Shown: positions 35,362 to 49,421, numbered from the stretch's first letter. The stretch: 64,000 nt of DNA from Vulcanimicrobiales bacterium (GCA_038231455.1 JBBRLI010000001.1:128001-192000), one strand, 5' to 3'. Made by a program: numbers and translations. The notes: a model not told the origin generated them from the sequence alone.

Positions 35362-35382
35362 GCGACTCTACCTCGCCTCCAC

Positions 35383-35946
35383 CTAGGATTTCTTTTTACC
35401 TCGATTGATCTCCGCCGCAAGTTCCGGATCGTCAGCCATTTCAATTAGTACTGAGGCCGCAACCGGAATTCTCGAACGCCATTTCCGTAGGACACCGATA
35501 AAGTAAGACCGCGATTGACCGAGTGCCTTGTCGCGCGTGAGATCAGCAATTAAACCAACGTCTTCTTTCTTTGCCAAAATCGATATTGCAACGGCCAGAC
35601 CGTCCTTTAGACCAAGGCCAGTCTTGTGTGGCGCTGCCTTATACAAGTCAACTATTTGCGGAAAAAAGCGGTAAGCTTCCGGCGTTCCCAACGCCCGAGC
35701 AATGCCAGCTTGTATTTTGAAAGAGTATGGCCGAGTTATATGTTTCATCAGCACTGGAATAGCCGGGCCGTACGGCGAGCCGGTATTGACCAAATCCCAA
35801 ACGCTGGACACGCGCACTCCCACGGCGTCTAAGTCGCGGCGAATAGCTTGCTGCTCAGCATCCAATATCTCGCGTTCGATTTTCATATCGAGGGAGCGAT
35901 TGGGCCGTTGATTTGGATCGCTCCGATCCGGACCGTCTACGTTCAT
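35383..35946 (-). CDS. Putative immunity protein (alpha-helical/HEAT-like) for the upstream RHS toxin
   Basis: Small co-oriented ORF starting 32 nt after the toxin stop; lower GC; WDLVNT...AIPVL..H...IARALG. Confidence 0.7.
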   Translation of the reverse strand: MNVDGPDRSDPNQRPNRSLDMKIEREILDAEQQAIRRDLDAVGVRVSSVWDLVNTGSPYGPAIPVLMKHITRPYSFKIQAGIARALGTPEAYRFFPQIVDLYKAAPHKTGLGLKDGLAVAISILAKKEDVGLIADLTRDKALGQSRSYFIGVLRKWRSRIPVAASVLIEMADDPELAAEINRGKKKS

Positions 35947-35978
35947 CTAAAGATCCCTCATCACTAACATGAGCTACT

Positions 35979-38900
35979 TCATTGCTTCTGCACAATTTCT
36001 GGAATAAGTTGGTGGATAATATTTCCAGTCGAAATTAGAGTTTTTAGAGGACCGCTGAGCTTCGTATCTGCGCGAACATATAACACAAAATCTAGGTTAT
36101 TGTCCTTCGCAAAGCTGGCGTAGTCTCGCAACTGTTGAGTATAACTTTGCGTTGTCACGTTCTTAATCTCGGTCAGCGTAGTTTCGGTCAAACCGTCTGG
36201 AATTCGAGTGACCCCTCCGATTTGAATTTTTACTTTTTTACCGATATCGATACCTGGTATAGCCCGAACAGCTTCTTCGCCGCGCCGTCCGACGGCTGCG
36301 GCCGAGCGTCCAGCGCCGGGATGCTCCAGAGCTTCAGTAATTGCTGGTCCATTTCTTGCAGAAAAACTTCCTAGAGCAACCGCCGCTCCGCATAGTATTG
36401 CTAGAGGACCGACGCAGTAGCCGCTGGGATCGCTATAAACATATGCATTATTCCGATTCCACATAAAGGGCATCTGCGAAGCGGGGTCGTGCACTTCTCC
36501 GGCGTACGCATCGGGCGTCGTCCAAGAAGCCAAATTCGAATTGAAGGCTCGCGCCCCGTTAATTTGGAGCTTGCCCAATTTGAAGCCATCGGGGCGAGTG
36601 TATTGCATGAAAGAGTTGGTCGGTGGGGTGAAGCCTGATCTGGCAGCGACCGCGAACGGAGCCGAGTTGTCCGTGGGATTTAGGGGTGTCAGCCAAGATG
36701 AGCCGCTGCTATTCGACGATTGTAAGATCACGTTCGCACTATCCCGATCGTACGTATTCAACCCTGAAAAGTTGCTATCGTGCGGATAAACGTCTCCGTC
36801 AAGGCCGACTTTAAAGTTCACGACGCTTCCACTTGCATCGGAGACGAATAACAACATGTCTCCATCCCAATGCGCCGTCCAAATCGAATTTGAGGTGTTC
36901 GCGTAATTTGGATCGATTGTTCCTGTAAAAAGAACGGGGTGACCATTGGAGCCCCAAGCTATCGATAACGGGCCAGCATCGAATGTTGAGTTCTGTGTCG
37001 CACCGGTCGATGAGCGGTAGGTCGAGGTGGCGCTTTTCGCATGCGTCCAAACTGTGTGATCTGCGAAATCGTAAGCTGCCGGCTCGGTACTCGAGGTTCT
37101 TCGCGTGACCGTCCCACCCCCGGTCTCGGCCGGACCGTCAGATATTGTCGTTTCCGCCATCGTGCTGTTCGTCATTCGACCACTTGCGTCAAACACGAAA
37201 TCCGATGAATTTTCAGAGCCACTACTGAAAGTTGAGTCAGAGTGAACACTAATTCCGTTAATAAAGTCACTGGAGTTATTCTGCGTGACCGCCGAACTGC
37301 CCTCAAACATTTGTGGCATCGACTTGCCAAAACCGTAACTAGGAATTGTCCTTGTATAGCCTTGCAAGACATATGGAATTGGCGAATACTGAGATTGTAT
37401 TAACTCACCCCGAACATTGAAGATATTGGAGACGGACACTGGCGAGCCTGTGGACTGCCCCGCTGTTAAGATCGGATAAACCGACGAGAATCCGGCAGTA
37501 ATCGGATTACCTTCAGCGTCATAGTCGTATGAGAGAGTGCCGGAGGGAACCGTCAACGTTGCAAGTTGCCCAGCTTGATCGTATGTCCGAGATTGGAAGT
37601 CGTTGTTGACAGCTTGGGATTGTAAGCGGCCACCCGCGGTATACAATCTATTCCAAACGGCGGACGCAGATTGGTTGTACGTCTGCTGGGCCAGCAGCCC
37701 GTCTACTCGATAAGAGTACGTGAGTACATTGGGAATGTTGAGAGTCGGTGAAAACACCGAAAGTGACTTCTTCCCACCGTCTGAAAAGTATGAGTACGCA
37801 AGATGGGCAGGATCCGTTATGCCGCCTGCCGTCGGCTCGAGGACGTCGGTTAGTTCGCCGCGGAGATCGTAAGATAAAGTCTCAAGACCAAACTTACTCG
37901 ACGTTAATGTAGCGGGGCGACCAGCTGGGTCGTAGACGATTTGCTCGTTCGGAGTCGTGTTGGCGCCACCGTCGGCATTGGAGGTCGGTGCCAAGTAGGT
38001 TCTGGTGACGATCCTAGCCAGCGCGTCATACGTAATCGACATAACTTCGCCGGTGGGCTTTGTTTCGGTCGCGCGTAAGCCCCAATGGCCTTCGCCGTCA
38101 TACGTATCCACGGTTGCCAATGGCGTGTCCGGGCTACCGGGTTGATATGTGTACTTCGAGAGGGACCGATCCATCGCATCGAAAGAATTTCCACGCACGT
38201 CGGTCATGACGCCAGTCCACGACTGTGTCTTGAAAAGATTGCCGTACGCGCGGAACGTTGGCGATCCTCGAAGAGAGACACTTCCGCCCTGAGAGAGATC
38301 ATAAATATAGCGCATGATCCAAGGAGAGCCATCATATTGCGCTAGGGAGCCGTCTTGATAAGATCGCGGGTCGTGAGGCTGTTGAACTTCTATAAGGCGA
38401 TCGGCACCGTCGTAGAACTTTCGAGTCGGCGATTCGGCACAGCTGGCAAGTGTACAACCCTCATGGCGTAACTCGGACGTAACATCGCCGTCCCTGTCAT
38501 AGGCATATGATGTCCTAACGTTAAGCCGTGCTTCTCCCGGAGACTGAGTCGTGGCGACCGAGCCATCCGGGAAATACGTTGTAGTTGATGCGTAGCCATC
38601 CGGGTCATTCGCTTGGACTATCCTATCGAGCCCATCGTAACTCAGAGACCAAGAGCCGACCCCCTTGCTATAGTTAATAACATTTCCGCGCGTGTCATAC
38701 GAAAACGCCTGAGTCGGGGTGCGCCCGGCATCCTCCGGAATTGGGTCGCCAGTAACCGAAACAGGCAGTCCGTATTCATTCCCTCCCTCCAAATTTGGGT
38801 TATATGCAAAGTGCGTCGCGTACGGTGCTGCACCAGAGCGCGGAGAGGGAGCCTGGATCTGTAAAAGCCGACCGTAGGGTTGATATGCCGGATAGTCCCA

Positions 38901-40835
38901 AGTCATCACCGTCGAGACTGAATTTGCGGGGCACACACCGGGTGGGGGCGGACTCGAATACCAATTCCAATTCAGATTGTTCGTGGCCACTTCATCGCAA
39001 TAGGCCGTGACATTATTATACGCATCGTACGTAAAAAGCTTCGTTGGGCGTAGAGTTCCAGCGGATGTGGTGGTTTGTGGAGCGGCGACCGCAATAGTAT
39101 TGCCGTTAGAATCGTATGCGTAATCAGTCTCGTTGTACGGCCAGGTGATTTGAGATATTTTATTGTTGTTAGAATCCCAGCCTTCTACTTGCGTCAGCCA
39201 CTGGTAACCGTTGTACGTGAGTCGACTCGTCGGCCTACCGGGATCGCTGAACGAGCCGTTTCCGCAACCGTCGATATATTGAACCACTTGATGCCCGTCG
39301 CTGTCGCTATACGAAGTGCTGTTGCAACTCCCGGTTACCGTCTCGTATCGGTACATGAACCAGCCTGTCGGGTATCCTGGCTGCAGCTGCGTGTTCGTAC
39401 CGTCGTTCAGATACGCCGGTCCAGGTGACATTGCGCCATATAGGCCAATTCCAAAAACTTGACCGCTGAGAAAGCCGCGCTCTTGAAAAGCAACATATCC
39501 GCCTTCGTTTCCTTGATTAGCGTATGCACGCGCACCGCCAATATACATGACGTTGTGATAGCCGCCATATAGCTGAGTGGCAAGCTGACCGCTATTGTCC
39601 GGTCCAGGCTTCGAGACCAGCGATAGATTTGAACTGCCATCATAGCTATACGTGATCGCGGCTCCGTCCGGACGGTCGACCTCAGAGAGTAAACGTTGCC
39701 CATTGACATCGGCGAATTTTAAGGTTGCCTGGAGGCATCCACAGTCCGCCGCAACGACGATCTGAGAGAGATTTGCACTGGAGGATGCATCGCCGTTCCA
39801 CGAATACGAAAAATTCAGAGAACTGTGACGGTTTCGCGCCTGTATTGAAACTAATCGCCCGCTATAAGCTGCACTCGCTCCGCTATAATACGGCGAGTAG
39901 AACATATATTGGGTTCCATTCTTCTTTATCCAGAAAAATGAACCACCATCCGGATTGGCAATCAACATCGTTCCTTGCATCCCGGCGGGCGGGACGAGCT
40001 GGCCAGATGCATTGAAGCAATAGTCGTATCGGGCGCCGTCGACGTCATAAACCGAGAATCCTGAGAACCCAGCCCACGAGTAGCCGACATTAGCGCAGTC
40101 GTTTGTCGACATGTGTGCATCGAACGTATTCGTCCACCCATTGCCGTATTGACCAATTTCAGTCGACCCATCGCTGCTTTGATAGTCGTGCCCGCCAAGG
40201 GAATTATACGTCCGACGAAACGCAAGGTCGATGCCGCGATAGGGGATATCAAAATCCGTTGACTGCACAATTAGGTTTTGCCAGTGCGCGTTTATCATCC
40301 AGTGGCCAACCCCTGGGATGTCGCCTTCTTCATAAGACCACCACGGATTAATGCCGGTTACGTTGAGCGTGTTTTGTGTGACCTGCGAGGCGCGACGAGT
40401 TGTACCAGCTCCCCGTTTACCAACCGCAGTCGGCGCCGATGCCGAAGTCGTCGAGGCTGTCGAGATGATTCTGCTCGATGATGCACGACTAAAAAAACGA
40501 ACTACCGCTTCTCCAGAATTGCGCTTACGCTTCGTTCGCATGTCGTCGTCATCATCGCCGATCCGCGGTCCAGGTTGTCGGAGGCCGGCGGCGGGAGCGT
40601 TTTTCGTCGCTATCTTTGGTTTCTCGATGTGCGTCACCGCGGGTAGAGTTGGCTTGGGTTGCGGGCGCTGATGCCGATCGAATTTCTTCGGATCGTCTGG
40701 GAAAAACGAAGGAACGAAATATGAATTCAACGAGCCGCCGCTCGCCGTTCCAGACGCATCGGAGGGCGAGCACGAAATCGCCATAAAAGCAATCGAAAAA
40801 AACGCCGCTAGGGCAGCGCGATAAACCAAGGACAC
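35979..40835 (-). CDS. RHS/YD-repeat polymorphic toxin with signal peptide and C-terminal Tox-REase-7-like nuclease
   Basis: GGAGG SD before GTG 40835; hydrophobic leader; DUF6531-like DLAFRRTYNS; many YD repeats; core end RNNAYVYSDPSG; tip RIPDG...EIKNV...YTQQLRD. Confidence 0.9.
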   Translation of the reverse strand: MSLVYRAALAAFFSIAFMAISCSPSDASGTASGGSLNSYFVPSFFPDDPKKFDRHQRPQPKPTLPAVTHIEKPKIATKNAPAAGLRQPGPRIGDDDDDMRTKRKRNSGEAVVRFFSRASSSRIISTASTTSASAPTAVGKRGAGTTRRASQVTQNTLNVTGINPWWSYEEGDIPGVGHWMINAHWQNLIVQSTDFDIPYRGIDLAFRRTYNSLGGHDYQSSDGSTEIGQYGNGWTNTFDAHMSTNDCANVGYSWAGFSGFSVYDVDGARYDYCFNASGQLVPPAGMQGTMLIANPDGGSFFWIKKNGTQYMFYSPYYSGASAAYSGRLVSIQARNRHSSLNFSYSWNGDASSSANLSQIVVAADCGCLQATLKFADVNGQRLLSEVDRPDGAAITYSYDGSSNLSLVSKPGPDNSGQLATQLYGGYHNVMYIGGARAYANQGNEGGYVAFQERGFLSGQVFGIGLYGAMSPGPAYLNDGTNTQLQPGYPTGWFMYRYETVTGSCNSTSYSDSDGHQVVQYIDGCGNGSFSDPGRPTSRLTYNGYQWLTQVEGWDSNNNKISQITWPYNETDYAYDSNGNTIAVAAPQTTTSAGTLRPTKLFTYDAYNNVTAYCDEVATNNLNWNWYSSPPPPGVCPANSVSTVMTWDYPAYQPYGRLLQIQAPSPRSGAAPYATHFAYNPNLEGGNEYGLPVSVTGDPIPEDAGRTPTQAFSYDTRGNVINYSKGVGSWSLSYDGLDRIVQANDPDGYASTTTYFPDGSVATTQSPGEARLNVRTSYAYDRDGDVTSELRHEGCTLASCAESPTRKFYDGADRLIEVQQPHDPRSYQDGSLAQYDGSPWIMRYIYDLSQGGSVSLRGSPTFRAYGNLFKTQSWTGVMTDVRGNSFDAMDRSLSKYTYQPGSPDTPLATVDTYDGEGHWGLRATETKPTGEVMSITYDALARIVTRTYLAPTSNADGGANTTPNEQIVYDPAGRPATLTSSKFGLETLSYDLRGELTDVLEPTAGGITDPAHLAYSYFSDGGKKSLSVFSPTLNIPNVLTYSYRVDGLLAQQTYNQSASAVWNRLYTAGGRLQSQAVNNDFQSRTYDQAGQLATLTVPSGTLSYDYDAEGNPITAGFSSVYPILTAGQSTGSPVSVSNIFNVRGELIQSQYSPIPYVLQGYTRTIPSYGFGKSMPQMFEGSSAVTQNNSSDFINGISVHSDSTFSSGSENSSDFVFDASGRMTNSTMAETTISDGPAETGGGTVTRRTSSTEPAAYDFADHTVWTHAKSATSTYRSSTGATQNSTFDAGPLSIAWGSNGHPVLFTGTIDPNYANTSNSIWTAHWDGDMLLFVSDASGSVVNFKVGLDGDVYPHDSNFSGLNTYDRDSANVILQSSNSSGSSWLTPLNPTDNSAPFAVAARSGFTPPTNSFMQYTRPDGFKLGKLQINGARAFNSNLASWTTPDAYAGEVHDPASQMPFMWNRNNAYVYSDPSGYCVGPLAILCGAAVALGSFSARNGPAITEALEHPGAGRSAAAVGRRGEEAVRAIPGIDIGKKVKIQIGGVTRIPDGLTETTLTEIKNVTTQSYTQQLRDYASFAKDNNLDFVLYVRADTKLSGPLKTLISTGNIIHQLIPEIVQKQ

Positions 40836-40989
40836 GGGACAACCTCCCACCAGTAGAGGGCACAAACGATGTCCCATGCGCATGATTCGAGCGGCGAAGG
40901 TTGTCGCCGTACCATTACCGTAACGCGGGATACGTCACAGACTACTACGACCTCAAGTGGAGGTCAAGTGGCTGTGCGAACGGCCTCAC

Positions 40990-43626
40990 ATGCATTTCCT
41001 TCGCCGCGCGCTCGTTACGAGTCTAGTTGTCCTTGGGATTATTCTTGGAATTGGGAGGACCGAAGCCGAATCAACAAATCTCGATCGGTTCGATTTTAGT
41101 GCGCAAAATGAGACGGTTCGCTCGGTTCTTCTTCGGCTCGCACGCGTTCACAACGCGAGCATTGTTGTTTCGCAGGGAGTTACGGGTTACGTCACGCTCT
41201 CGCTAAAAAACGTTACGCTGCGCGATGCGCTTACGGCGATTCTTGAGCCGATCGGCGATACATACCAAGTTCGTGGAAATGTCTACGTCGTAAAAGCCGG
41301 CGCGTCAGTTTCCCTCGATGGCGCCGCTACGACGGCCCCGACGGTCTTAGCACTCTCGATCATTCCCGCAAAGGTTGGCCGCGAGGTTCTTAAACCGCTT
41401 TTTCCTTCTGCGGAGATACGGGTCGACGCACGTGCAAATGCGCTGGTCATCGTTGCGCCACCCTCAGATCTACAGTCGATGCGGACGGTTCTTCAGGGCA
41501 TTGACGTAAAGAATCCAACCGCCGATACGACCGAAGCGCTCTCGCTTCGAACTGCGAGTGGTGTTTCGCTGACCTCTCGACTACGCGCGGCATTCCCAAA
41601 GGCGAAATTCTTACCGGTTGGCTCCCGCCAGCTTTTGATTACCGCAACGCCAAATGAACTCACGCAAATTAAGGCCGCGGTCGCAGCGCTCGACACGCCG
41701 CCGCCTCAGCCGACCTCGATCACCGTAAATTCTGAAGCCGTCCGCTTGAACGTTCGCGCTCCGAGCGATGTTGCACGTTCTGTCGTCTCTCAGATACCTG
41801 GCGTGCGCGCCTCCGTTGCTGGCGGCGCGGTCGTGCTCTCCGGACCAACGGAACTCGTCTCGCGCGCGAAAGCTCTCATCGTGCAGCTCGACGTTCCGAA
41901 TTTTGGCGATCGCTATACACAAATTTATCGCGTCCGGACGGTCGATGCGACCTCCGTCGCCGACCTTCTCCGACGGAGTATTCGCAACATCGATGTTAGC
42001 GTCGATGCCTCACTCAATGCCCTAGCTATAAATGCAACCGCTGCGGACCACGCGCGGATCGCCGAGGCGATCGCACAGTTTGACGCGCCGGCCTCGACGG
42101 CGTCAACGAGTTTTTCCGGTATGCCTTCGACCGGTTCGAACGGATCCTCCGAGGTGATAACGTTAAAATCGTATATTCCCGGACAGGGGCAAGGCGCAAC
42201 CGACGCGGTCACTTCTATCTCTGCGGCTTTGCTTATCGCCGTCCCAGACGTAAAAGTAGCGCAGCTTCCGACGCCCGGTCAGATCGTCATTATGGGATCC
42301 CCGGCGAGTGTTCGCACGGCCCACGAATTCATCAATAAGGTGGACTTGATTCCACCGCTCGTCGTCTTAGATACGGAAGTTCTCGAGATAGACGAAAGCG
42401 TAGCAAAAAATCTCGGTGTGCAACTCGGCACCGCTGCTATTACGAGCCAATTTACGGAACAACAACCTCAAGCGACCGACGGTGCGACGCCGCGGCTCGG
42501 TCGCTTTCAAGCGTTGACGCGAACGCCGATCCAGTTTACGGCTCAGCTAAACTTGCTGATACAAAACGGCAAAGGGCGCGTTTTGGCCGATCCGCGCATC
42601 ACGACACTCTCGGGACACACCGCCACCATCCGCGCAGGCGACACGATTTCGATTCTGACTACGACGTCGGGCAACGCCGGGACAATTGCTACGACCCAGG
42701 TCCAGAGTTTCCAAACCGGCGTCACGCTCGATATTACGCCGTCGGTTACCCCCGATGGGGACATTATGGTGAGCCTACACCCGGTCGTGAATAGTCTTAT
42801 TGGCACAAATAACGGCGTTCCGGAGATTAGTACCCGTGATACCCAGACCACGGTCCATCTGCGCGATGACGAGACGCTAGTTATTGGCGGCCTCATCCAA
42901 GAGAACGAAACGCGGACAACGACCCGAATACCGTTTCTTGGAAACCTTCCGGTAATCGGTCGCGCTTTCCGCAACGACAACGTTCAAGGGCAGCGCAACG
43001 AGCTGATCATCGTCGTCACACCACATGTCGTGAAGCCGGGGACAACCGTACCGGGGCCTCGTCTCACCACATTCCCCTCGCCGCAGCCGCTACCAACGTT
43101 GCCGCCCACCGCGCAACTCCCCCCGCCCGTGGGTCAGCTTCCACGAACGGTACCGGTTCCAAGCCCAACCACGTTGCGGTCCGCGGCAAGCACGCAAATG
43201 AATCCGGCATCGCCGATGGCGAGCGGCACTGCCGCCGCTTCCCCGACACCGCAATCGCCGTCGCCAAGCGGTCTTTTACAAACAAATGTATTTGTGTTCG
43301 GCTCGCCGCCGCAAAGTAATTTTGCCAAGCCTACCGATGTCGTACAAATTCTCTATTGCACGCTATCGCCAACCGTCGCAGCGACGAATGGAACGCCGGT
43401 AAAAATCGCGGTCGTCACCACCTCAAACGCGAACGCCGTTCGCCTCATGATCGGCTCGCAAAGCGTGAACCTTGCACAAACGGGAATCGGACAGTGGCAA
43501 GCGTCGTTCCCATTCCCGACAACCGCGATTCCTGTGGGCCAGAGCAGCATTACGGCAACACTTCTGGCCCTTCGTATAGACGGCAGCAGCGCCAGCATTC
43601 CGATTTTGCTTTCGCTGGCTCCGTGA
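40990..43626 (+). CDS. Secretin (GspD/PilQ/SctC superfamily) with STN/N0 and repeated N domains and a long C-terminal extension
   Basis: Signal peptide; VTLSLKNVT; DARANAL; LADPRITTLSG, TGVTLDITP, LVIGGLI, IPFLGNLPVIGRAF, ELIIVVTP. Confidence 0.92.
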   Translation: MHFLRRALVTSLVVLGIILGIGRTEAESTNLDRFDFSAQNETVRSVLLRLARVHNASIVVSQGVTGYVTLSLKNVTLRDALTAILEPIGDTYQVRGNVYVVKAGASVSLDGAATTAPTVLALSIIPAKVGREVLKPLFPSAEIRVDARANALVIVAPPSDLQSMRTVLQGIDVKNPTADTTEALSLRTASGVSLTSRLRAAFPKAKFLPVGSRQLLITATPNELTQIKAAVAALDTPPPQPTSITVNSEAVRLNVRAPSDVARSVVSQIPGVRASVAGGAVVLSGPTELVSRAKALIVQLDVPNFGDRYTQIYRVRTVDATSVADLLRRSIRNIDVSVDASLNALAINATAADHARIAEAIAQFDAPASTASTSFSGMPSTGSNGSSEVITLKSYIPGQGQGATDAVTSISAALLIAVPDVKVAQLPTPGQIVIMGSPASVRTAHEFINKVDLIPPLVVLDTEVLEIDESVAKNLGVQLGTAAITSQFTEQQPQATDGATPRLGRFQALTRTPIQFTAQLNLLIQNGKGRVLADPRITTLSGHTATIRAGDTISILTTTSGNAGTIATTQVQSFQTGVTLDITPSVTPDGDIMVSLHPVVNSLIGTNNGVPEISTRDTQTTVHLRDDETLVIGGLIQENETRTTTRIPFLGNLPVIGRAFRNDNVQGQRNELIIVVTPHVVKPGTTVPGPRLTTFPSPQPLPTLPPTAQLPPPVGQLPRTVPVPSPTTLRSAASTQMNPASPMASGTAAASPTPQSPSPSGLLQTNVFVFGSPPQSNFAKPTDVVQILYCTLSPTVAATNGTPVKIAVVTTSNANAVRLMIGSQSVNLAQTGIGQWQASFPFPTTAIPVGQSSITATLLALRIDGSSASIPILLSLAP

Positions 43627-43947
43627 CTACCTAGTTCGAATCTTTTTCGCCAGAAGCGCCACGGATTTTTCGAGTTCACTTACGCGCTCACTCAGCGTTC
43701 TTGATGCCTTGCCTTCGTCACTACCCAAAGCAAGGTACCGAACGTCGACATCGAGGGCTTCTGCAAGACGAAGACCGACGACGAGACTCGCACTCTTCGT
43801 CTGACCTGACTCCATTTGGCGAATGGCCCCTTCGGTAACACCCACCATGTGCGCAAGGGCACTTGGTGTTAGCTCCGCGTCGACGCGAAGTCGGCGCAAT
43901 CGATCCCCAAAGGTCTCCATGGCTCGCGCCTTGCGCGCTGCGGGCAT
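43627..43947 (-). CDS. XRE-family HTH transcriptional regulator (start may be ATG 43920)
   Basis: FGDRLRRLR...LT..ALA..VGVT..AIRQMESG...LAEALDV..RYLALG. Confidence 0.88.
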   Translation of the reverse strand: MPAARKARAMETFGDRLRRLRVDAELTPSALAHMVGVTEGAIRQMESGQTKSASLVVGLRLAEALDVDVRYLALGSDEGKASRTLSERVSELEKSVALLAKKIRTR

Positions 43948-44140
43948 CTGATCCCGCCTGCGTCGAGGTATAGTTTAGGACGAAGGGCTTGATTTCAATG
44001 CGACGAAGGGGCACATCGCTACCGCTTTCCGGGTGTATTTTGATGAACGATTATCAGCCAAACTTGCCAAGGACTCGGACTGGTTCCTTGACTAGGACCA
44101 GTATTAAATTCATGGCTTTCGCAACTCGGCTAGTGCCGTT

Positions 44141-44443
44141 TTGGGGCAACGGATGCTGAGAGATACCGCTCCCTCGTACATGGACGACGGTGACACGGAA
44201 GAAGTGTCCGACAATCTTGGAACGCGCCTCCAGAACGATCTAAAGGACGGGCTAGCGAGTTTAGGCTTAGAGCTGGTCGTAGAAGACAGTATCGGCGTTA
44301 TCGCCCTGCGCGTGGTAAACGATAACAACGTCGGTACTGCTTACCTCGAAATTCGCGACGGTGGCTTACAGATTCGGGTAATCCTCGCAAACGATCAAAA
44401 CGTTGAAATCGCGGGTGCTCGGCGCGCAGGATCAGCGGCATAA
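44141..44443 (+). CDS. Small acidic hypothetical protein (start uncertain)
   Basis: Fills the gap divergent from the XRE gene; protein-like composition. Confidence 0.45.
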   Translation: MGQRMLRDTAPSYMDDGDTEEVSDNLGTRLQNDLKDGLASLGLELVVEDSIGVIALRVVNDNNVGTAYLEIRDGGLQIRVILANDQNVEIAGARRAGSAA

Positions 44444-44499
44444 GCGAAGGCACTCGCTGCGCAGCGGACGCGAAATTCGCCGTCTATCTCACCCTTGTC

Positions 44500-45741
44500 T
44501 TGAGCTGGATGTTGTTTTGGGCAGCGCCGGCCGCGGCTGAAAAGACGATCTTCTCCGCGCCGATTAACCACAACGAACTGGGGAATCAAGCAGCCGAACG
44601 CGGCGACCTTCCCACAGCTCTTGCCGAATACACACGGGCCATCATACAAACGCCGGATATTCCGGAACCGCTATACAATCGCGCGGTGACGTATTCGAAA
44701 TTGCATCGTGATTCGGAAGCCCTTGCCGATGCGCTTGGAACCATCAAGATAGCGCCGCTTTTCTCCGAAGGGTTCGCACTGTGCGCACGACTCTATCGCG
44801 ACGCCGGCGACCTGGAAAAAGCCGATCGTTCGATCGAGGGCGCGCGATCGCTTCAGCCTGAGCGAGCCGCGTATGCCGTCCTTGCGGCCGACATCCGTGA
44901 GCGTGAACATCGGATTTCCGACGCAGCTTCGTTGCTTGCGACGGTCGTCGCAAAGGACCCACGCGATAGCGAGTCCACTTACAATTTGGCACGGCTGCGA
45001 ATCGAGCAACATCGCGATGCCGAAGCCGTTCCGCTTCTCAAGCGCTACGCGACGCTCGTTCCAGGCGCCACCGACGTCATCACGCTCGTCCCAGAGATCT
45101 ATCTCAACGCAAATCGTCCGGTCGACGCGCTAGACTGGCTCGATCATCATCCCGAGAAAAGCGAGAGCGCGATCGACAATCGCGCCCGCGCGCTTCTGAT
45201 GCTTGGCAGAAAATCAGAAGCGGCCGTTCTGCTTGCCGAAAATCCAATTGCAGTTTCGACGTATCGAGAGCGCGTTCGCGGCGATCTTGAACTCCGTGCC
45301 GGTGATTGTCCGGCAGCAGAAAACCACTATGCGGCAGCAAGCGCGAATCTCAAGCCGACGACCGCGGCCACGCGCGAAGAGAACTTCTCTACCTGGAGAA
45401 ACTTTGCTGTTGCACATATCTGCGCCAATCATGCGCAACAGGCGATCGCGGCGCTCGACAATGCTTTAGTAATCGAGCCATCAGACGCGCTCGCACTCCG
45501 CTACCGAGCCGATGCACGCCGGGCCAGTGGCGACATCCCAGGTGCAATTGCCGATGCGACGCGAGCCCTGGCCCACGATCCAAAGGACGCGAACCTCCTG
45601 ATGATGCTTGGAGTCGACGAGTACCGGACCGGCAAACACGCTCGGGGCGCCGCACACTACAGACTTGGATGCGACCTTCTCGCGAGTGACGAAACCGTGA
45701 AGCGAGCGGCCTGCGCGCAGCAACTTCCAAAAATGCAGTAA
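44500..45741 (+). CDS. Tetratricopeptide repeat protein, probably exported
   Basis: Repeated A...Y..AL...P TPR pattern; hydrophobic AAPAAA-E N-terminus. Confidence 0.85.
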   Translation: MSWMLFWAAPAAAEKTIFSAPINHNELGNQAAERGDLPTALAEYTRAIIQTPDIPEPLYNRAVTYSKLHRDSEALADALGTIKIAPLFSEGFALCARLYRDAGDLEKADRSIEGARSLQPERAAYAVLAADIREREHRISDAASLLATVVAKDPRDSESTYNLARLRIEQHRDAEAVPLLKRYATLVPGATDVITLVPEIYLNANRPVDALDWLDHHPEKSESAIDNRARALLMLGRKSEAAVLLAENPIAVSTYRERVRGDLELRAGDCPAAENHYAAASANLKPTTAATREENFSTWRNFAVAHICANHAQQAIAALDNALVIEPSDALALRYRADARRASGDIPGAIADATRALAHDPKDANLLMMLGVDEYRTGKHARGAAHYRLGCDLLASDETVKRAACAQQLPKMQ

Positions 45742-45786: not shown

Positions 45787-46746
45787 GTGTCGACGGTCGT
45801 TCGTTTTCCGCCCACGTTTTTTGGCATCGCGTTCGGGCTCTTCGGTCTTGCACGCGTCTGGAGAGAGGCCGCGCCTGCGTTCGGTCTCCCGATCGTCTTC
45901 GGCGATTCGCTCGCACTTCTGGCTGGTGCGATCTACCTCGGATTGCTGGCTGCGCTCATCGCAAAGGCGATGGTGGCGCCTGCGAAGATTCGATCGGAGC
46001 TAACGCATCCGATCTTGGGAGCTTTCTACGCGCTGGTACCGATCGACGCACTGCTTTTTGCGCTCAATCTGCGCTCGATACTCGGTCCATCGGCTCTCCC
46101 GATCGTGGTCGTCGCTCTTGCCGTTGGAAGCATCTATGCGAGTTGGATCACCGCGTCGTGGATCGCGCGTGTCGATCGCAAGCCTGACGATCTGAACTAC
46201 GGGTATTTTCTTCCGACGGTTGCGATGGGCTTGATCGGTGGCGACTCCCTCGCGGTCCTCGGATACCCGGCGGTCGGCACGATGTATTTTGGCGTCGGCA
46301 CGATTAGCTGGGTCATCTTGGCATCGATCTTTGCTTATCGCGCGATCGCAGGTGCACCACGCATCGGCGCGGCCTTACTGCCGACCCTCGCGATCGAGCT
46401 GGCACCTGCGGCCGTCGTCGGAAACGCTTACCTTTCCATCACCGGAGGGCACAACGGCATGATCGTCCTGGCGCTTGCGGGCTATGCGGCATACACGGTG
46501 CTTCAGCAACTTTTCCTCATTCCAATGTATCGTGTCGCGCCATTTTCGCCTGGCTTTTGGGCGTTTACGTTTCCGTGGGCAGCGTCGGCGACATTTGCAA
46601 TTCGCACGAGCGTCATCGCTCATGATGCCGTCGCCTCGGCGGTCGCAATCGTTCTCGCAACTGGCGTAACGGTGCTTATTCTTGGGATCGGCGTGCGCTC
46701 GCTCATCGCGATCGGTCGCGGGACATTCGTCCCAAAGCCAACGTAG
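45787..46746 (+). CDS. TDT family transporter (TehA/SLAC1-like)
   Basis: About 10 TMs; FGIAFGLFGL, ELTHP, FSPGFWAFTFP. Confidence 0.88.
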   Translation: MSTVVRFPPTFFGIAFGLFGLARVWREAAPAFGLPIVFGDSLALLAGAIYLGLLAALIAKAMVAPAKIRSELTHPILGAFYALVPIDALLFALNLRSILGPSALPIVVVALAVGSIYASWITASWIARVDRKPDDLNYGYFLPTVAMGLIGGDSLAVLGYPAVGTMYFGVGTISWVILASIFAYRAIAGAPRIGAALLPTLAIELAPAAVVGNAYLSITGGHNGMIVLALAGYAAYTVLQQLFLIPMYRVAPFSPGFWAFTFPWAASATFAIRTSVIAHDAVASAVAIVLATGVTVLILGIGVRSLIAIGRGTFVPKPT

Positions 46747-46790
46747 CAGAGTAAGCGAGCCCGCGTGATTTGATCGGGTATCAAACGCAA

Positions 46791-46961
46791 ATGAAACGCA
46801 CGCTCACCTCTTTGACGGCTGGAGCAATGTTGGCCAAGCTTGCCGCCGACCGCAAAGCGAACACCGTCCCCGTAGCGCCGATCGAAGACGTCCATCCATT
46901 CCCGAAGCCCGTCATCATCGACGAGCGTAAGGCGCCGAAAATGGATATCGCAGCGCCCTAA
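46791..46961 (+). CDS. Possible small protein (56 aa)
   Basis: ATG-initiated ORF filling the intergenic gap with host-like codon usage; no recognised family. Confidence 0.35.
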   Translation: MKRTLTSLTAGAMLAKLAADRKANTVPVAPIEDVHPFPKPVIIDERKAPKMDIAAP

Positions 46962-47024
46962 AAGCCGGGACTGGGACGCGCCGCGATGTTAATCTTGGCT
47001 TAAAGCATTGTCTCTACGCTAGAG

Positions 47025-49421
47025 ATGATGCAACGATCGATCCGTTCTGTTCTTTCTGCGACGGCGCTTGTCGGGCTGCTGGCTACGAGCGCGCAGGCCG
47101 CGACGCTCGTTCCCGACGGACGCGCCATCTCGCCGACTGGCTTTACAATTCCCGTCGAAGGCTTCGCAGCGGCATCCGCGCTCTCGCCCGATGGGAAGTG
47201 GCTCGCGGTGCTCTCGACCGATGGCGGTGCGATCGACATTGTCAGCACGGGAAAATCGATGCTTGTCGAGCGCCTCTCCGCGAGCAGCGCATCCGGCCTA
47301 GCCTGGACGACCGACGGTTTATTCGTTACGCGCGGCTACACCGGAACGATCTCGCGCTTCTCCTACGATATAGCCGCCGGCAAAGCGACGTTTCCCAAGC
47401 GCGCCGACATCAAGCTAGCGGCGGGCCTTGCAAATGGAATTGTCGAGGACCCGACCTCACATACGATCGTGGTCGCGCGCACGGCCGAACATACCGTCCT
47501 CGTCATCGACGATACGAGAGGGGCCATCGTCCGCACGTTGCAAGCATCTGACGAACCCTACGGCGTCGCGCTCGTTGGAGATACGATCGTCGCGTCACTG
47601 TATAATACGGATCACGTGGATGCTTGGCGAGCCGGAGCGACCGACGCCGTGCACGTTCCGACGGGCGCGCATCCTACGCAAATGCTGGTTGACGGCGGAC
47701 GCGTGTTTATTGCCAATGCCGACGGCCGCGATGTCGTCGCGATCGATGGGACTACGCTTGCGGTGAGCAAACGTTTCGATCTGAGCATCGGTGCCGACGC
47801 CCCACCCGGGCAAACGCCCGCCGGCATGGCGATCTCAGGTGATAAGACGATGCTCTTCGTTGCGGAGTCGGGCTTCAACGATGTCGCCGTCATTGATATT
47901 GCCTCCGGCCGCACGCTCGCGCGCATTCCAACGGCGTGGTATCCAACGGCACTCGCTTTCGTATCGAATACGACGGTCGGCAAGAAAGACGCACGCGTCA
48001 AAGCGCAGCTTTGGATTACCTCGGCCAAAGGTCTGGGCTCCCAAGCCGATCCTGCTGGCGAGTGGAACGGCACGTATACCGGCCTTGTGCAGCACCTCGT
48101 GGTCGAACCGAACCGCTTCGCCGAGTGGAGCGCGCAAGTCGCTCGCAACGATAAATTCTCCGCGCCTGCAAGCGCACGGCGGCTCCCGCCGATCAAACAC
48201 GTCGTCGTGATCGTGCGTGAGAATAAACATTTCGATGAGGAATTCGCCGACGAACCCGGTGCAAACGTCGATCCTGCGCTCCTGCTCTACGGCAAAAAGT
48301 ACACACCGAATGGGCACGCACTGGCCGAGCGTTACGCCTTACTCGACAACTTCATGTCCGATGGGGAAGCGAGCATCTTTGGGCACGCCTGGGACGTCCA
48401 GGGAATGGCAAACGACTACCACGAGCGCAATGCGCACGTGCGCGATGCCGGTTCGCCCGAGGTGCACGCGCGCGTCGCGTGGTCGATCTGGCCGTACGCG
48501 CAATCGGGCGAGGACGTCCTCACCTCGGCCGATATGGACTTCGATTGGCTCCACGATCTGAGCGCACTCCCGAAAGGCCCGCGCGTCAACGTCAGCGCCG
48601 TCTTCGGTCCGCGCGGCGAACTCATCGACGAACTTCAACGTCGAAGCGTGAGCTTTCGGGTCTACGGCGAGCAAATGACGATGCGCGCCGACGGCACAAT
48701 CGTGCCGGGTCTTGCCGCGCACGGCCTCGCGACGTATCCCGGCGTCCACATCGACTTCGGCGTGCTTGATACGGATCGCGCGAAGATGTTTCTCGCTGAC
48801 GTCAAAGCGCAGGGTGGGCTATCGGCCTACACGTTTCTCACCTTGCCGACCGATCACACAACCGGGATGAAGCCCGGCTTCTATACACCCGTCTCGTACA
48901 TCGCCGACAACGACGTCGCAACGGGTCAGATCATCGCCGGTCTCTCGAAGCGTCCGGAGTGGCGCGACACCATCGTCATCGTGCTGCCCGACGACGCCCA
49001 GGGCACCGGCGACCACGTCGATAGCCATCGCATGCCCGTCTTCATCGCCGGGCCGTACGTACGCCGCGCGTTCGTCGATCACACGCGCTACAGCGTCCCC
49101 TCGGTGCTGCGCACCGTCGAAATGCTCTTTGGCGTACGCCCGCTCAACATCTACGATGCATCCGCAACACCGCTGTTCAACGCGCTCGCGAAACAGCCGC
49201 AGACAACCGCCTATGTGCCGCTTCCTGCGAACGTTCCGATCGTGAAAAACCCGGGGACCGCGACGGCGTATTCTTTCGACATCGACGGTGGCGACTCGTC
49301 CGACATTCCAAACCAAGAGTGGCAATCACTCAAAGGCAACGCGTCCCTTGACGCACATCTCGCGTACGTGAAACGGCTCGACCCCCGCGCCGTCGCCGTC
49401 CACGCTAGCGACGAACGCTAA
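47025..49421 (+). CDS. Secreted YncE/YVTN beta-propeller plus phosphoesterase (alkaline phosphatase superfamily)
   Basis: Signal peptide; IPTAWYP; IKHVVVIVRENKHFD; LPTDHT; DDAQGTGDHVDSHR. Confidence 0.85.
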   Translation: MMQRSIRSVLSATALVGLLATSAQAATLVPDGRAISPTGFTIPVEGFAAASALSPDGKWLAVLSTDGGAIDIVSTGKSMLVERLSASSASGLAWTTDGLFVTRGYTGTISRFSYDIAAGKATFPKRADIKLAAGLANGIVEDPTSHTIVVARTAEHTVLVIDDTRGAIVRTLQASDEPYGVALVGDTIVASLYNTDHVDAWRAGATDAVHVPTGAHPTQMLVDGGRVFIANADGRDVVAIDGTTLAVSKRFDLSIGADAPPGQTPAGMAISGDKTMLFVAESGFNDVAVIDIASGRTLARIPTAWYPTALAFVSNTTVGKKDARVKAQLWITSAKGLGSQADPAGEWNGTYTGLVQHLVVEPNRFAEWSAQVARNDKFSAPASARRLPPIKHVVVIVRENKHFDEEFADEPGANVDPALLLYGKKYTPNGHALAERYALLDNFMSDGEASIFGHAWDVQGMANDYHERNAHVRDAGSPEVHARVAWSIWPYAQSGEDVLTSADMDFDWLHDLSALPKGPRVNVSAVFGPRGELIDELQRRSVSFRVYGEQMTMRADGTIVPGLAAHGLATYPGVHIDFGVLDTDRAKMFLADVKAQGGLSAYTFLTLPTDHTTGMKPGFYTPVSYIADNDVATGQIIAGLSKRPEWRDTIVIVLPDDAQGTGDHVDSHRMPVFIAGPYVRRAFVDHTRYSVPSVLRTVEMLFGVRPLNIYDASATPLFNALAKQPQTTAYVPLPANVPIVKNPGTATAYSFDIDGGDSSDIPNQEWQSLKGNASLDAHLAYVKRLDPRAVAVHASDER

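Follow-up and report, generated by a model that had tools for sequence, protein, structure and literature searches.

Signal-peptide RHS proteins belong to a "T2SS/Sec-dependent" class of polymorphic toxins (T2SS, type II secretion system) described by Zhang et al. 2012 (PMC3482391), the tips of which include Tox-REase-7. How such toxins cross the outer membrane is an open gap, and the text of that catalogue, additional files aside, lists no signature neighbour gene for the class and does not contain the word "secretin". The RHS gene described here is found in a Vulcanimicrobiales bacterium, in a 64,000-nucleotide stretch of DNA (GCA_038231455.1, JBBRLI010000001.1:128001-192000) that was analysed as a whole and is called the window below. 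Its product shows the features of the Sec-dependent class, namely a signal-peptide leader, called by a heuristic, and no other trafficking domain. In contrast to the catalogued class, it has a signature neighbour, which is a gene for a secretin. The pairing of RHS and secretin genes is recurrent in the phylum, and this suggests an undescribed exit route for such toxins.

The closest precedent is a 2025 preprint (bioRxiv 10.1101/2025.05.08.652813), which predicts T2SS export for gspG-linked Rhs proteins of Xanthomonas and Ralstonia; the prediction is not functionally confirmed in the text consulted. In both cases, gene neighbourhood points to a T2SS-type route rather than to a type VI secretion system (T6SS). 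However, the linked gene in the preprint is that of the pseudopilin GspG, the hosts are proteobacteria with a full T2SS, and neither "secretin" nor "gspD" occurs in the main text, supplement aside. An earlier reading of the window, made from the sequence alone (the sequence-only reading), had held that no system with this pairing was described. A literature search likewise turned up neither a described secretin-RHS pairing nor any account of these secretins in Eremiobacterota, but the broader idea of T2SS export for Rhs toxins is anticipated by the preprint.

The two-step logic of the T2SS, in which Sec delivers proteins to the periplasm and a secretin then serves as the gate, is the same as that proposed here. 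The secretin in the window shares with GspD an N0 domain, further N domains and the secretin domain, and T2SS substrates are large exoenzymes and toxins. In contrast to GspD, it has five rather than three N domains after N0, and its C-terminal part consists of a Pro-rich linker and an Ig-like domain in place of an S-domain. It scores 184.9 bits against the GspD model TIGR02517 in NCBIfam, for which the cut-off is 351.35 (alignment over residues 124-693). Also, its gene is paired with a cargo gene, no gspC-M genes are nearby, and the genome has no second set of T2SSE ATPase genes outside the contig (C5) that carries a pilus-type cluster.

PilQ, the secretin of type IV pili, is the other obvious comparison. 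Thermus PilQ is a multi-ring protein, and the secretin in the window likewise has a long stack of N domains. Its sequence matches in the PDB cover the secretin domain only and are to PilQ and GspD chains (E 4e-28 to 1e-15), of which the best is to PilQ (4e-28). However, it scores 184.1 bits against the PilQ model TIGR02515 (cut-off 284.35) and is below the cut-offs of all curated NCBIfam secretin families. Pfam finds no AMIN domain in it, and its gene lies outside the pilMNOPQ-like cluster, which is on C5 and has its own secretin of 456 amino acids (aa).

Two further systems resemble parts of this arrangement. WapA of Bacillus subtilis is an RHS/YD toxin that is exported by Sec, has an immunity gene and is independent of T6SS. 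In contrast to the present case, its host, being a monoderm, has neither an outer membrane to be crossed nor a secretin. Orphan or phage secretins, for example Pseudomonas aeruginosa XqhA and filamentous phage pIV, are encoded apart from the rest of their machine and plug into a partner platform. Unlike the secretin in the window, they are not known to have one particular cargo gene as a partner, and their platform partners are known, these being the Xcp machinery or phage pI/pXI.

Long secretins and their gene neighbours

On sequence scores, the secretin in the window is assigned to a phylum-specific family, here called long secretins, that is neither GspD nor PilQ. Pfam detects Secretin (E 1.2e-45), Secretin_N (E 1.7e-25) and a weak STN domain, in keeping with membership of the PF00263 superfamily. 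A monomer model was made with AlphaFold2 (AF2) from a 33-row alignment; its mean pLDDT (predicted local distance difference test) is 70.2, and its numbering is offset by +11 relative to the frame from GTG. The model predicts a signal peptide, the N0 domain, five N domains, the secretin domain, a disordered Pro-rich linker and a C-terminal beta-sandwich. Beta-alpha-beta-beta-alpha units are modelled with confidence at model residues 34-102 and 118-451, and the secretin domain is at low pLDDT in the monomer. When modelled alone, the C-terminal domain has a pLDDT of 88 and matches generic Ig-like folds only, with a best template-modelling score of ~0.5 in the PDB. The linker and the Ig-like domain are present in all full-length relatives (alignments A1, A2 and A4). 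The N0 domain is missing from many relatives, including many members that are linked to RHS genes.

A stand-alone open reading frame (ORF) of 126 aa (L048:7490-7870; G000:C21:47489-47869) is 57% identical to the Ig-like domain of the secretin. It is located at a contig end and adjoins a gene for a 1227-aa secreted protein. Long secretins up to 63% identical to that of the window also occur in metagenome-assembled genomes (MAGs) labelled Acidimicrobiaceae, Limnocylindrales and Acidoferrum (L056, L064, L101, L106 and L114). These occurrences may represent mis-binning rather than spread to other phyla.

The sequence-only reading had proposed that the RHS protein exits or is displayed through the secretin. 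Among the findings that it had named as speaking against this were homologous secretins without RHS neighbours, and homologues that group with ordinary PilQ or GspD in complete operons. Neither was obtained. Among 41 relatives, the long type is encoded at 11 loci in 7 genomes. An RHS gene flanks the long secretin gene in the window and at both copies in a second genome (G030), where the secretin gene comes first and the RHS gene follows, with a gene for a 200-aa lipoprotein between them in one of the two copies. In an unpublished genome (G020:C92), an RHS gene is divergent to a long secretin gene at a contig end. The neighbour is a giant S8 subtilase at three loci of G008, in G012 and beside the paralogue encoded in the window's own genome (C1:40207-42378), which is 42% identical to the secretin in the window. 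A Met-zincin is the neighbour in G003, and the short contig of G011 gives no neighbour.

A scan of species representatives gave 571 relatives, of which the best 80 loci were examined; several genomes contribute two or three loci. An adjacent RHS gene is found at 29 of these 80 long-secretin loci, although at four of them it is only a fragment. The RHS gene of one locus (L084) was recognized by clustering and confirmed by NCBIfam. A gene for a giant S8 subtilase is located within ~2-5 kb at 22 loci, usually upstream and co-directional. Neither cargo gene is found at 29 loci, just 7 of which have at least 3 kb of flanking sequence on both sides, and several loci without a cargo gene adjoin secA. 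Clustering of all neighbouring ORFs at the 80 loci revealed no further recurrent partner at those with an RHS gene, be it an ATPase, pilin or platform gene. At the surveyed loci, long secretins never occur inside pilus or T2SS operons.

Several features of individual groups of loci were also observed. In one clade of long secretins (L063, L064, L065 and L073), the gene has no RHS or S8 neighbour and is convergent with secA; this clade may be an ancestral or housekeeping member of the family. The S8-type loci (L040:9541-19067 and ~20 more, L077-L127) have the gene order S8 subtilase, ~594-aa lipoprotein, ~164-aa lipoprotein and long secretin. Their giant S8 subtilases are ~1500 aa long and carry both a signal peptide and an N-terminal motif that is conserved, and the two lipoproteins belong to no Pfam family. 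In the second pair of the window's genome (L045:7871-12378; G000:C1:37871-42378), the gene directly before that of the secretin encodes an S8 subtilase of 728 aa, which is of lipoprotein type and contains a PEGA domain. A lipoprotein of ~200 aa that belongs to no known family is encoded directly after the secretin gene at 3 of the 80 loci and at 15 of 93 loci in the survey described next, in one clade (for example, L038:11199-11801 and L042:8117-8752). It is possible that this protein is a pilotin-like accessory. A fragment 87% identical to it is located upstream of an unlinked third RHS gene of G030 (L145).

The converse survey was centred on RHS genes. Among 401 genomes of the phylum that were scanned, 75 encode an RHS protein at E <= 1e-40, with the two best candidates per genome scored, and nearly all carriers belong to one family (72 of the 296 genomes of f1). 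With two unpublished genomes left out, 93 RHS loci from 71 genomes were examined. A long secretin is found at 46 of these loci, in 40 genomes, which corresponds to 46 of 78 informative loci, the other 15 being uninformative. All 46 secretin genes are at the 5' end of the RHS gene, 38 of them divergent and 8 co-directional. The adjacency is far commoner than expected by chance, which by a rough estimate is below 1% (~3 copies, a 6-kb target and a 3-Mb genome). One of the 46 loci (L220:2209-6085) is degenerate, such that a C-terminal secretin fragment abuts an RHS gene without its first ~400 residues.

The unlinked RHS loci have no alternative conserved neighbour in common. Of five genomes with an unlinked RHS gene, four encode long secretins elsewhere. 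Several genomes contain a linked RHS copy and an unlinked close relative of it, with 82-87% identity between the cores, and this fits the use of one secretin in trans.

A phylogeny of 102 secretins was built with FastTree and rooted on the two short secretins of the window's genome; the long secretins cluster together in it. The RHS-linked secretins form several separate groups, which are interleaved with S8-linked groups and with one group that has no cargo neighbour. Distances between secretins correlate with those between RHS proteins (Mantel r 0.58, p 0.001) across 25 loci where both genes are complete. Among these loci, the secretins are at least 85% identical and the RHS cores at most 60% identical in 10 locus pairs, and there are no converse pairs. 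In G030 (L037/L038), the two secretins are 94.7% identical and the two RHS proteins 35%. Judged from these sequences, the pattern looks like a conserved gate that serves fast-changing cargo and has repeatedly changed cargo type, rather than like hitch-hiking. When G030 is taken together with G123 (L152/L183), the secretin copies within a genome are 92-95% identical and the adjoining RHS proteins 35-50%. This points to secretin genes that recently were duplicated, or underwent gene conversion, beside different toxins.

The RHS toxin and its genomic island

The window's RHS protein, which is the only one in the host genome, contains DUF6531 (residues 203-262), RHS_repeat (E 1.1e-12) and a C-terminal Tox-REase-7 domain according to Pfam, and YD_repeat_2x (E 2.5e-12) according to NCBIfam. 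It can be aligned with the RHS proteins of relatives across ~1300-1450 aa. The model for the RHS-associated core, TIGR03696, gives 16.8 bits with a cut-off of 32.5, and a DPSGY motif that resembles an autoproteolysis site can be read in the sequence just before the Tox-REase-7 tip. Zhang et al. 2012 (PMC3482391) give GxxxE, IxD, ExK and Q as the signature of Tox-REase-7, and all four elements are readable in the tip. An ORF of 187 aa lies 33 bp downstream of the RHS gene, and its position after this tip makes its product a putative immunity protein. It has one homologue, 35% identical, which adjoins another RHS gene (L157).

Common delivery domains are not detected in the RHS protein. The sequence-only reading had recognized none, and a Pfam search at E <= 0.01 agrees for PAAR, VgrG, LXG/WXG and Tc domains. 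The protein has no TcB/SpvB domain, so it does not qualify as a Tc toxin BC component, although a TcA partner was not searched for genome-wide. It also does not resemble the Rhs effectors delivered by T6SS, because it lacks PAAR and because no T6SS markers (TssC, PAAR and VgrG families) are found in the 93.67%-complete genome.

The Sec-like hydrophobic leader noted previously is present, and similar leaders occur in most related RHS proteins. In the window, the leader starts at GTG 40832, with the longest frame starting from ATG 40883, and it ends in a lipobox-like AISC. The lipidation of this protein is uncertain because the Cys is not kept in orthologues. For the same reason, lipoprotein anchoring was rejected as a general feature of these RHS proteins and is possible for the window's copy only. 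The leader that follows the signal peptide is rich in Pro, Ser and Thr, is probably extended and ends with TGINPWWSYEE. Orthologues have in common short leader motifs of the PxRIxVxEPxR and GPPMLRPSEID types, from which the window's copy has diverged.

Across loci, the N-termini of RHS proteins consist of a signal peptide, a Pro-rich leader of 120-250 residues and the core start TGINxWWxY. The typical signal peptide has the form M-R-R, a hydrophobic stretch and the end Q-S/T-S/T-A-S-A. By a crude heuristic rule applied to N-termini, 57 of 64 RHS proteins have starts that resemble signal peptides (29 of 32 secretin-linked and 28 of 32 unlinked), compared with 576 of 1808 control ORFs (32%). The S8 subtilase neighbours likewise start with signal peptides. 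These sequence features suggest that both kinds of cargo protein are Sec substrates.

All genes named in the sequence-only reading are present where it had placed them (Table 1). The RHS and secretin genes are head-to-head and 73-158 bp apart, depending on the choice of start codons. Neither the divergent intergenic region nor the ends of the island contain operator-like inverted repeats. The GC content is 0.51-0.59 over 35-45 kb versus 0.60-0.66 in the flanks, which bears out the impression that the block is lower in GC than its surroundings.

Table 1. Coordinates of features at the RHS-secretin locus, counted from the first nucleotide of the window
Feature	Position	Strand	Basis or remark
Immunity-like ORF, 187 aa	35383-35946	-	ORF list; no Pfam/NCBIfam family
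RHS/YD-repeat polymorphic toxin, 1634 aa	35979-40883	-	Pfam, NCBIfam; alternative GTG start 40832
Tox-REase-7 nuclease tip, RHS residues 1532-1613	36045-36290	-	Pfam E 1.4e-19, full profile
RHS N-terminal leader, ~130 aa, between signal peptide and core	40359-40754	-	Alignment A3
Sec-type signal peptide region of RHS, residues ~1-43, lipobox-like AISC	40755-40883	-	Read from sequence
Divergent intergenic region between RHS and secretin starts	40884-40989	.	Putative promoter region
Long secretin, 889 aa from GTG, signal peptide	40957-43626	+	Pfam; likely ATG at 40990
N0 (STN-like) and five N (ring-building) domains of secretin, predicted periplasmic	41089-42342	+	AF2 model
Pro-rich disordered linker and C-terminal Ig-like beta-sandwich of secretin	43042-43617	+	Alignments A1, A2, A4; AF2
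XRE-family helix-turn-helix regulator	43627-43947	-	Pfam HTH_31 and HTH_3; convergent with secretin, within island
Small ORF, 100 aa, last ORF of island	44141-44443	+	ORF list; doubtful as real gene
TPR protein	44500-45741		Backbone gene, outside island

Comparison with a genome of the same genus (G001) helps to define the block. There, the counterpart of the acyl-CoA dehydrogenase gene that lies to the left of the block in the window (86% DNA identity) is followed within ~25 bp by the homologue of the TPR gene, and therefore the window appears to carry an inserted island at ~35362-44499. The island contains the immunity-like ORF, the RHS, secretin and XRE genes and the small ORF, which are missing from G001 between conserved flanks. 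Judged by this alignment, the block is a horizontally acquired island of ~9 kb in which the RHS and secretin genes came in together. Its absence from G001 between conserved flanks therefore implies that the module moves as a unit.

The remaining genes of the block have fared differently. The sequence-only reading had given the block its own XRE regulator, downstream of the secretin gene. This gene is indeed within the island, but it is on the minus strand and convergent with the secretin gene rather than co-directional. It was not borne out as a regular component of the module, being found at 2 of the 80 and 1 of the 93 loci, with the same position and orientation only in L052/L171 and L085. 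The TPR gene had been suggested as a module member or pilotin gene. It belongs to the chromosomal backbone in G001, which lacks the island, and it has no match at any surveyed locus, so a co-inherited pilotin was rejected. The small ORF has no homologue at the surveyed loci and no Pfam or NCBIfam match, and it was likewise dropped as a regular component. The window continues on the right of the island (45787-49421) with a gene for a SLAC1/TehA-type anion channel and a gene for a 798-aa signal-peptide protein, which is composed of a beta-propeller region and a phosphoesterase (phospholipase C-like) domain.

The host genome is a MAG of the Eremiobacterota/Vulcanimicrobiota, 3.71 Mb in 106 contigs and 93.67% complete. 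It encodes BamA and LpxC, and the organism is therefore a diderm with an outer membrane to cross. Four genes with a secretin domain are present: that of the window, the paralogue on the same contig (C1), the 456-aa secretin within the pilus-type cluster on C5, and a solitary gene on C17. The genome's two T2SSE ATPase genes and its one T2SSF gene occur only in this cluster. Prepilin N_methyl motifs are found on C5, C18 and C30 and not on C1. These results uphold the remark that the secretin has no pilin, ATPase or platform genes nearby; type III secretion system genes, which the remark also covered, were not specifically searched.

Proposed export through the secretin and competing explanations

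On the favoured reading, the RHS and secretin genes would make up a two-gene module that exports an antibacterial RHS nuclease, and the island would supply an immunity gene as well. The RHS protein would be made with a Sec signal peptide and cross the inner membrane via SecYEG. Its extended, Pro-rich N-terminal leader would keep it export-competent in the periplasm and dock it to the long secretin. In the modelled architecture, the N0 and five N domains of the secretin would form an unusually long periplasmic conduit under the outer-membrane gate, and the RHS protein would exit, or be displayed, through this gate. Outside the cell, the RHS shell would bring the Tox-REase-7 DNase tip to competitors, and the small downstream protein would protect the producer.

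The starting points of this scheme are the domain content of both proteins, the leader, the lack of T6SS markers in the genome and the recurrent, exclusive linkage of the secretin family with large Sec-exported proteins (RHS or S8) throughout the phylum, all of which are observed. Passage through the secretin, docking and delivery to targets are its predicted steps. We consider it moderately probable that the RHS protein is exported by Sec and then exits or is displayed through a cargo-dedicated, co-encoded secretin. The central proposal of the sequence-only reading is thus supported at the level of conserved gene linkage.

Several points weigh against this scheme. At 32 of the 78 informative RHS loci, no secretin gene is adjacent despite at least 4 kb of 5' flank. 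One genome (G017, 96% complete) has an RHS gene, located at a contig end, and no long secretin at E <= 1e-60. Both surveys draw on the same genome collection and include related genomes, and the counts are not independent events. The tree carries no support values, the signal-peptide counts come from a simple rule rather than from SignalP, and no RNA sequencing runs that hold the locus were found. Between RHS paralogues within a genome, the N-terminal leader is no better conserved than the core, and generally less. The idea that the leader is a constrained docking signal was rejected, as it has no sequence signature. The module has no ATPase or pseudopilus of its own, and therefore no known energy source is available for secretin-mediated export. 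Size is a further difficulty, because 86 x 65 A is at the upper limit for open secretin channels, and an RHS shell of these dimensions would therefore be a tight fit. A folded Rhs cocoon of 86 x 65 A is described (PMC8765631). Perhaps the RHS chain is exported partly folded and completes its folding outside the cell, which is conceivable.

Some of these points would be accommodated if the two genes were functionally linked and the secretin were not the conduit for the RHS protein. The secretin could then have a different, co-regulated task, for instance as a port for pili or DNA uptake, as a slime nozzle, or as an anchor in the envelope via its Ig-like domain, and the RHS protein would get to the surface or medium by lipoprotein sorting, vesicles or lysis. 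Secretins with non-export roles, such as slime nozzles, are described (PMC12475490). The module without a linked ATPase or pseudopilus, the lipobox-like AISC of the window's RHS protein, the 29 of 80 family loci without either cargo gene nearby and the 32 RHS loci without an adjacent secretin are all consistent with this explanation. However, it does not account for a neighbour that is in every case a very large Sec-exported protein (RHS or S8), for a secretin gene that is invariably found at the 5' end of the RHS gene in two orientations, or for the extent of the pattern across several secretin groups; also, the lipobox Cys is not conserved in orthologues. We regard this explanation as rather unlikely. 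A by-product of mobility, in which RHS and secretin genes share islands or recombination hot spots and have no joint function, is less probable again. Many RHS loci contain RHS fragments and tandem RHS pieces and are evidently prone to recombination, the low-GC island is missing from G001, and related genomes inflate the counts. Nevertheless, the linkage is kept while secretins diverge to ~45% identity and RHS cores to ~35-40%, it occurs in two gene orders, and it extends to a second, unrelated cargo class, the S8 subtilases. Near-identical secretins next to very different RHS proteins within one genome also argue against shared mobility, as does the finding that no other island gene is conserved with the pair and that shared bounding mobile-element genes were not seen.

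Alternatively, the secretin might act on the receiving side and be co-inherited with the toxin; it would then recognize kin or take up toxin, as an entry gate or as a polymorphic receptor at the surface. A C-terminal Ig-like domain on a long linker could in principle serve in recognition, and otherwise only an analogy with the receptor-linked polymorphic toxin exchange of myxobacteria speaks for such a role. The secretin varies far less than the toxins, unlike what a polymorphic recognition receptor would do, and the same family pairs with proteases, for which no target receptor in the producer is needed. This explanation therefore seems very improbable.

If the RHS protein does pass through the secretin, the genome offers just one candidate platform, the single type IV pilus cluster on C5. 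The N0 domain canonically binds inner-membrane platforms. Because many RHS-linked members lack this domain, platform-independent export is possible, at least for those members. A bolder proposal, which we put forward as doubtful, is that the long secretins of Eremiobacterota are self-sufficient, cargo-dedicated translocons, each consisting of one secretin and one cargo gene and operating with no pseudopilus, ATPase or inner-membrane platform. Export might then be driven by vectorial folding of the cargo outside the cell. If true, the module would represent a protein secretion pathway of a new type, with RHS toxins and 1200-1600-aa subtilases as its cargo, and it would give the Sec-dependent RHS toxins of diderms their first known dedicated exit.

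In this phylum, RHS genes thus have one specific secretin family as their signature neighbour, and giant exoproteins of a second class are paired with the same family in modular fashion. Such pairing suggests that a secretin can serve as a cargo-dedicated gate. It also offers a way into competition between bacteria and the export of proteins in a phylum of soil and peat that is largely uncultured.

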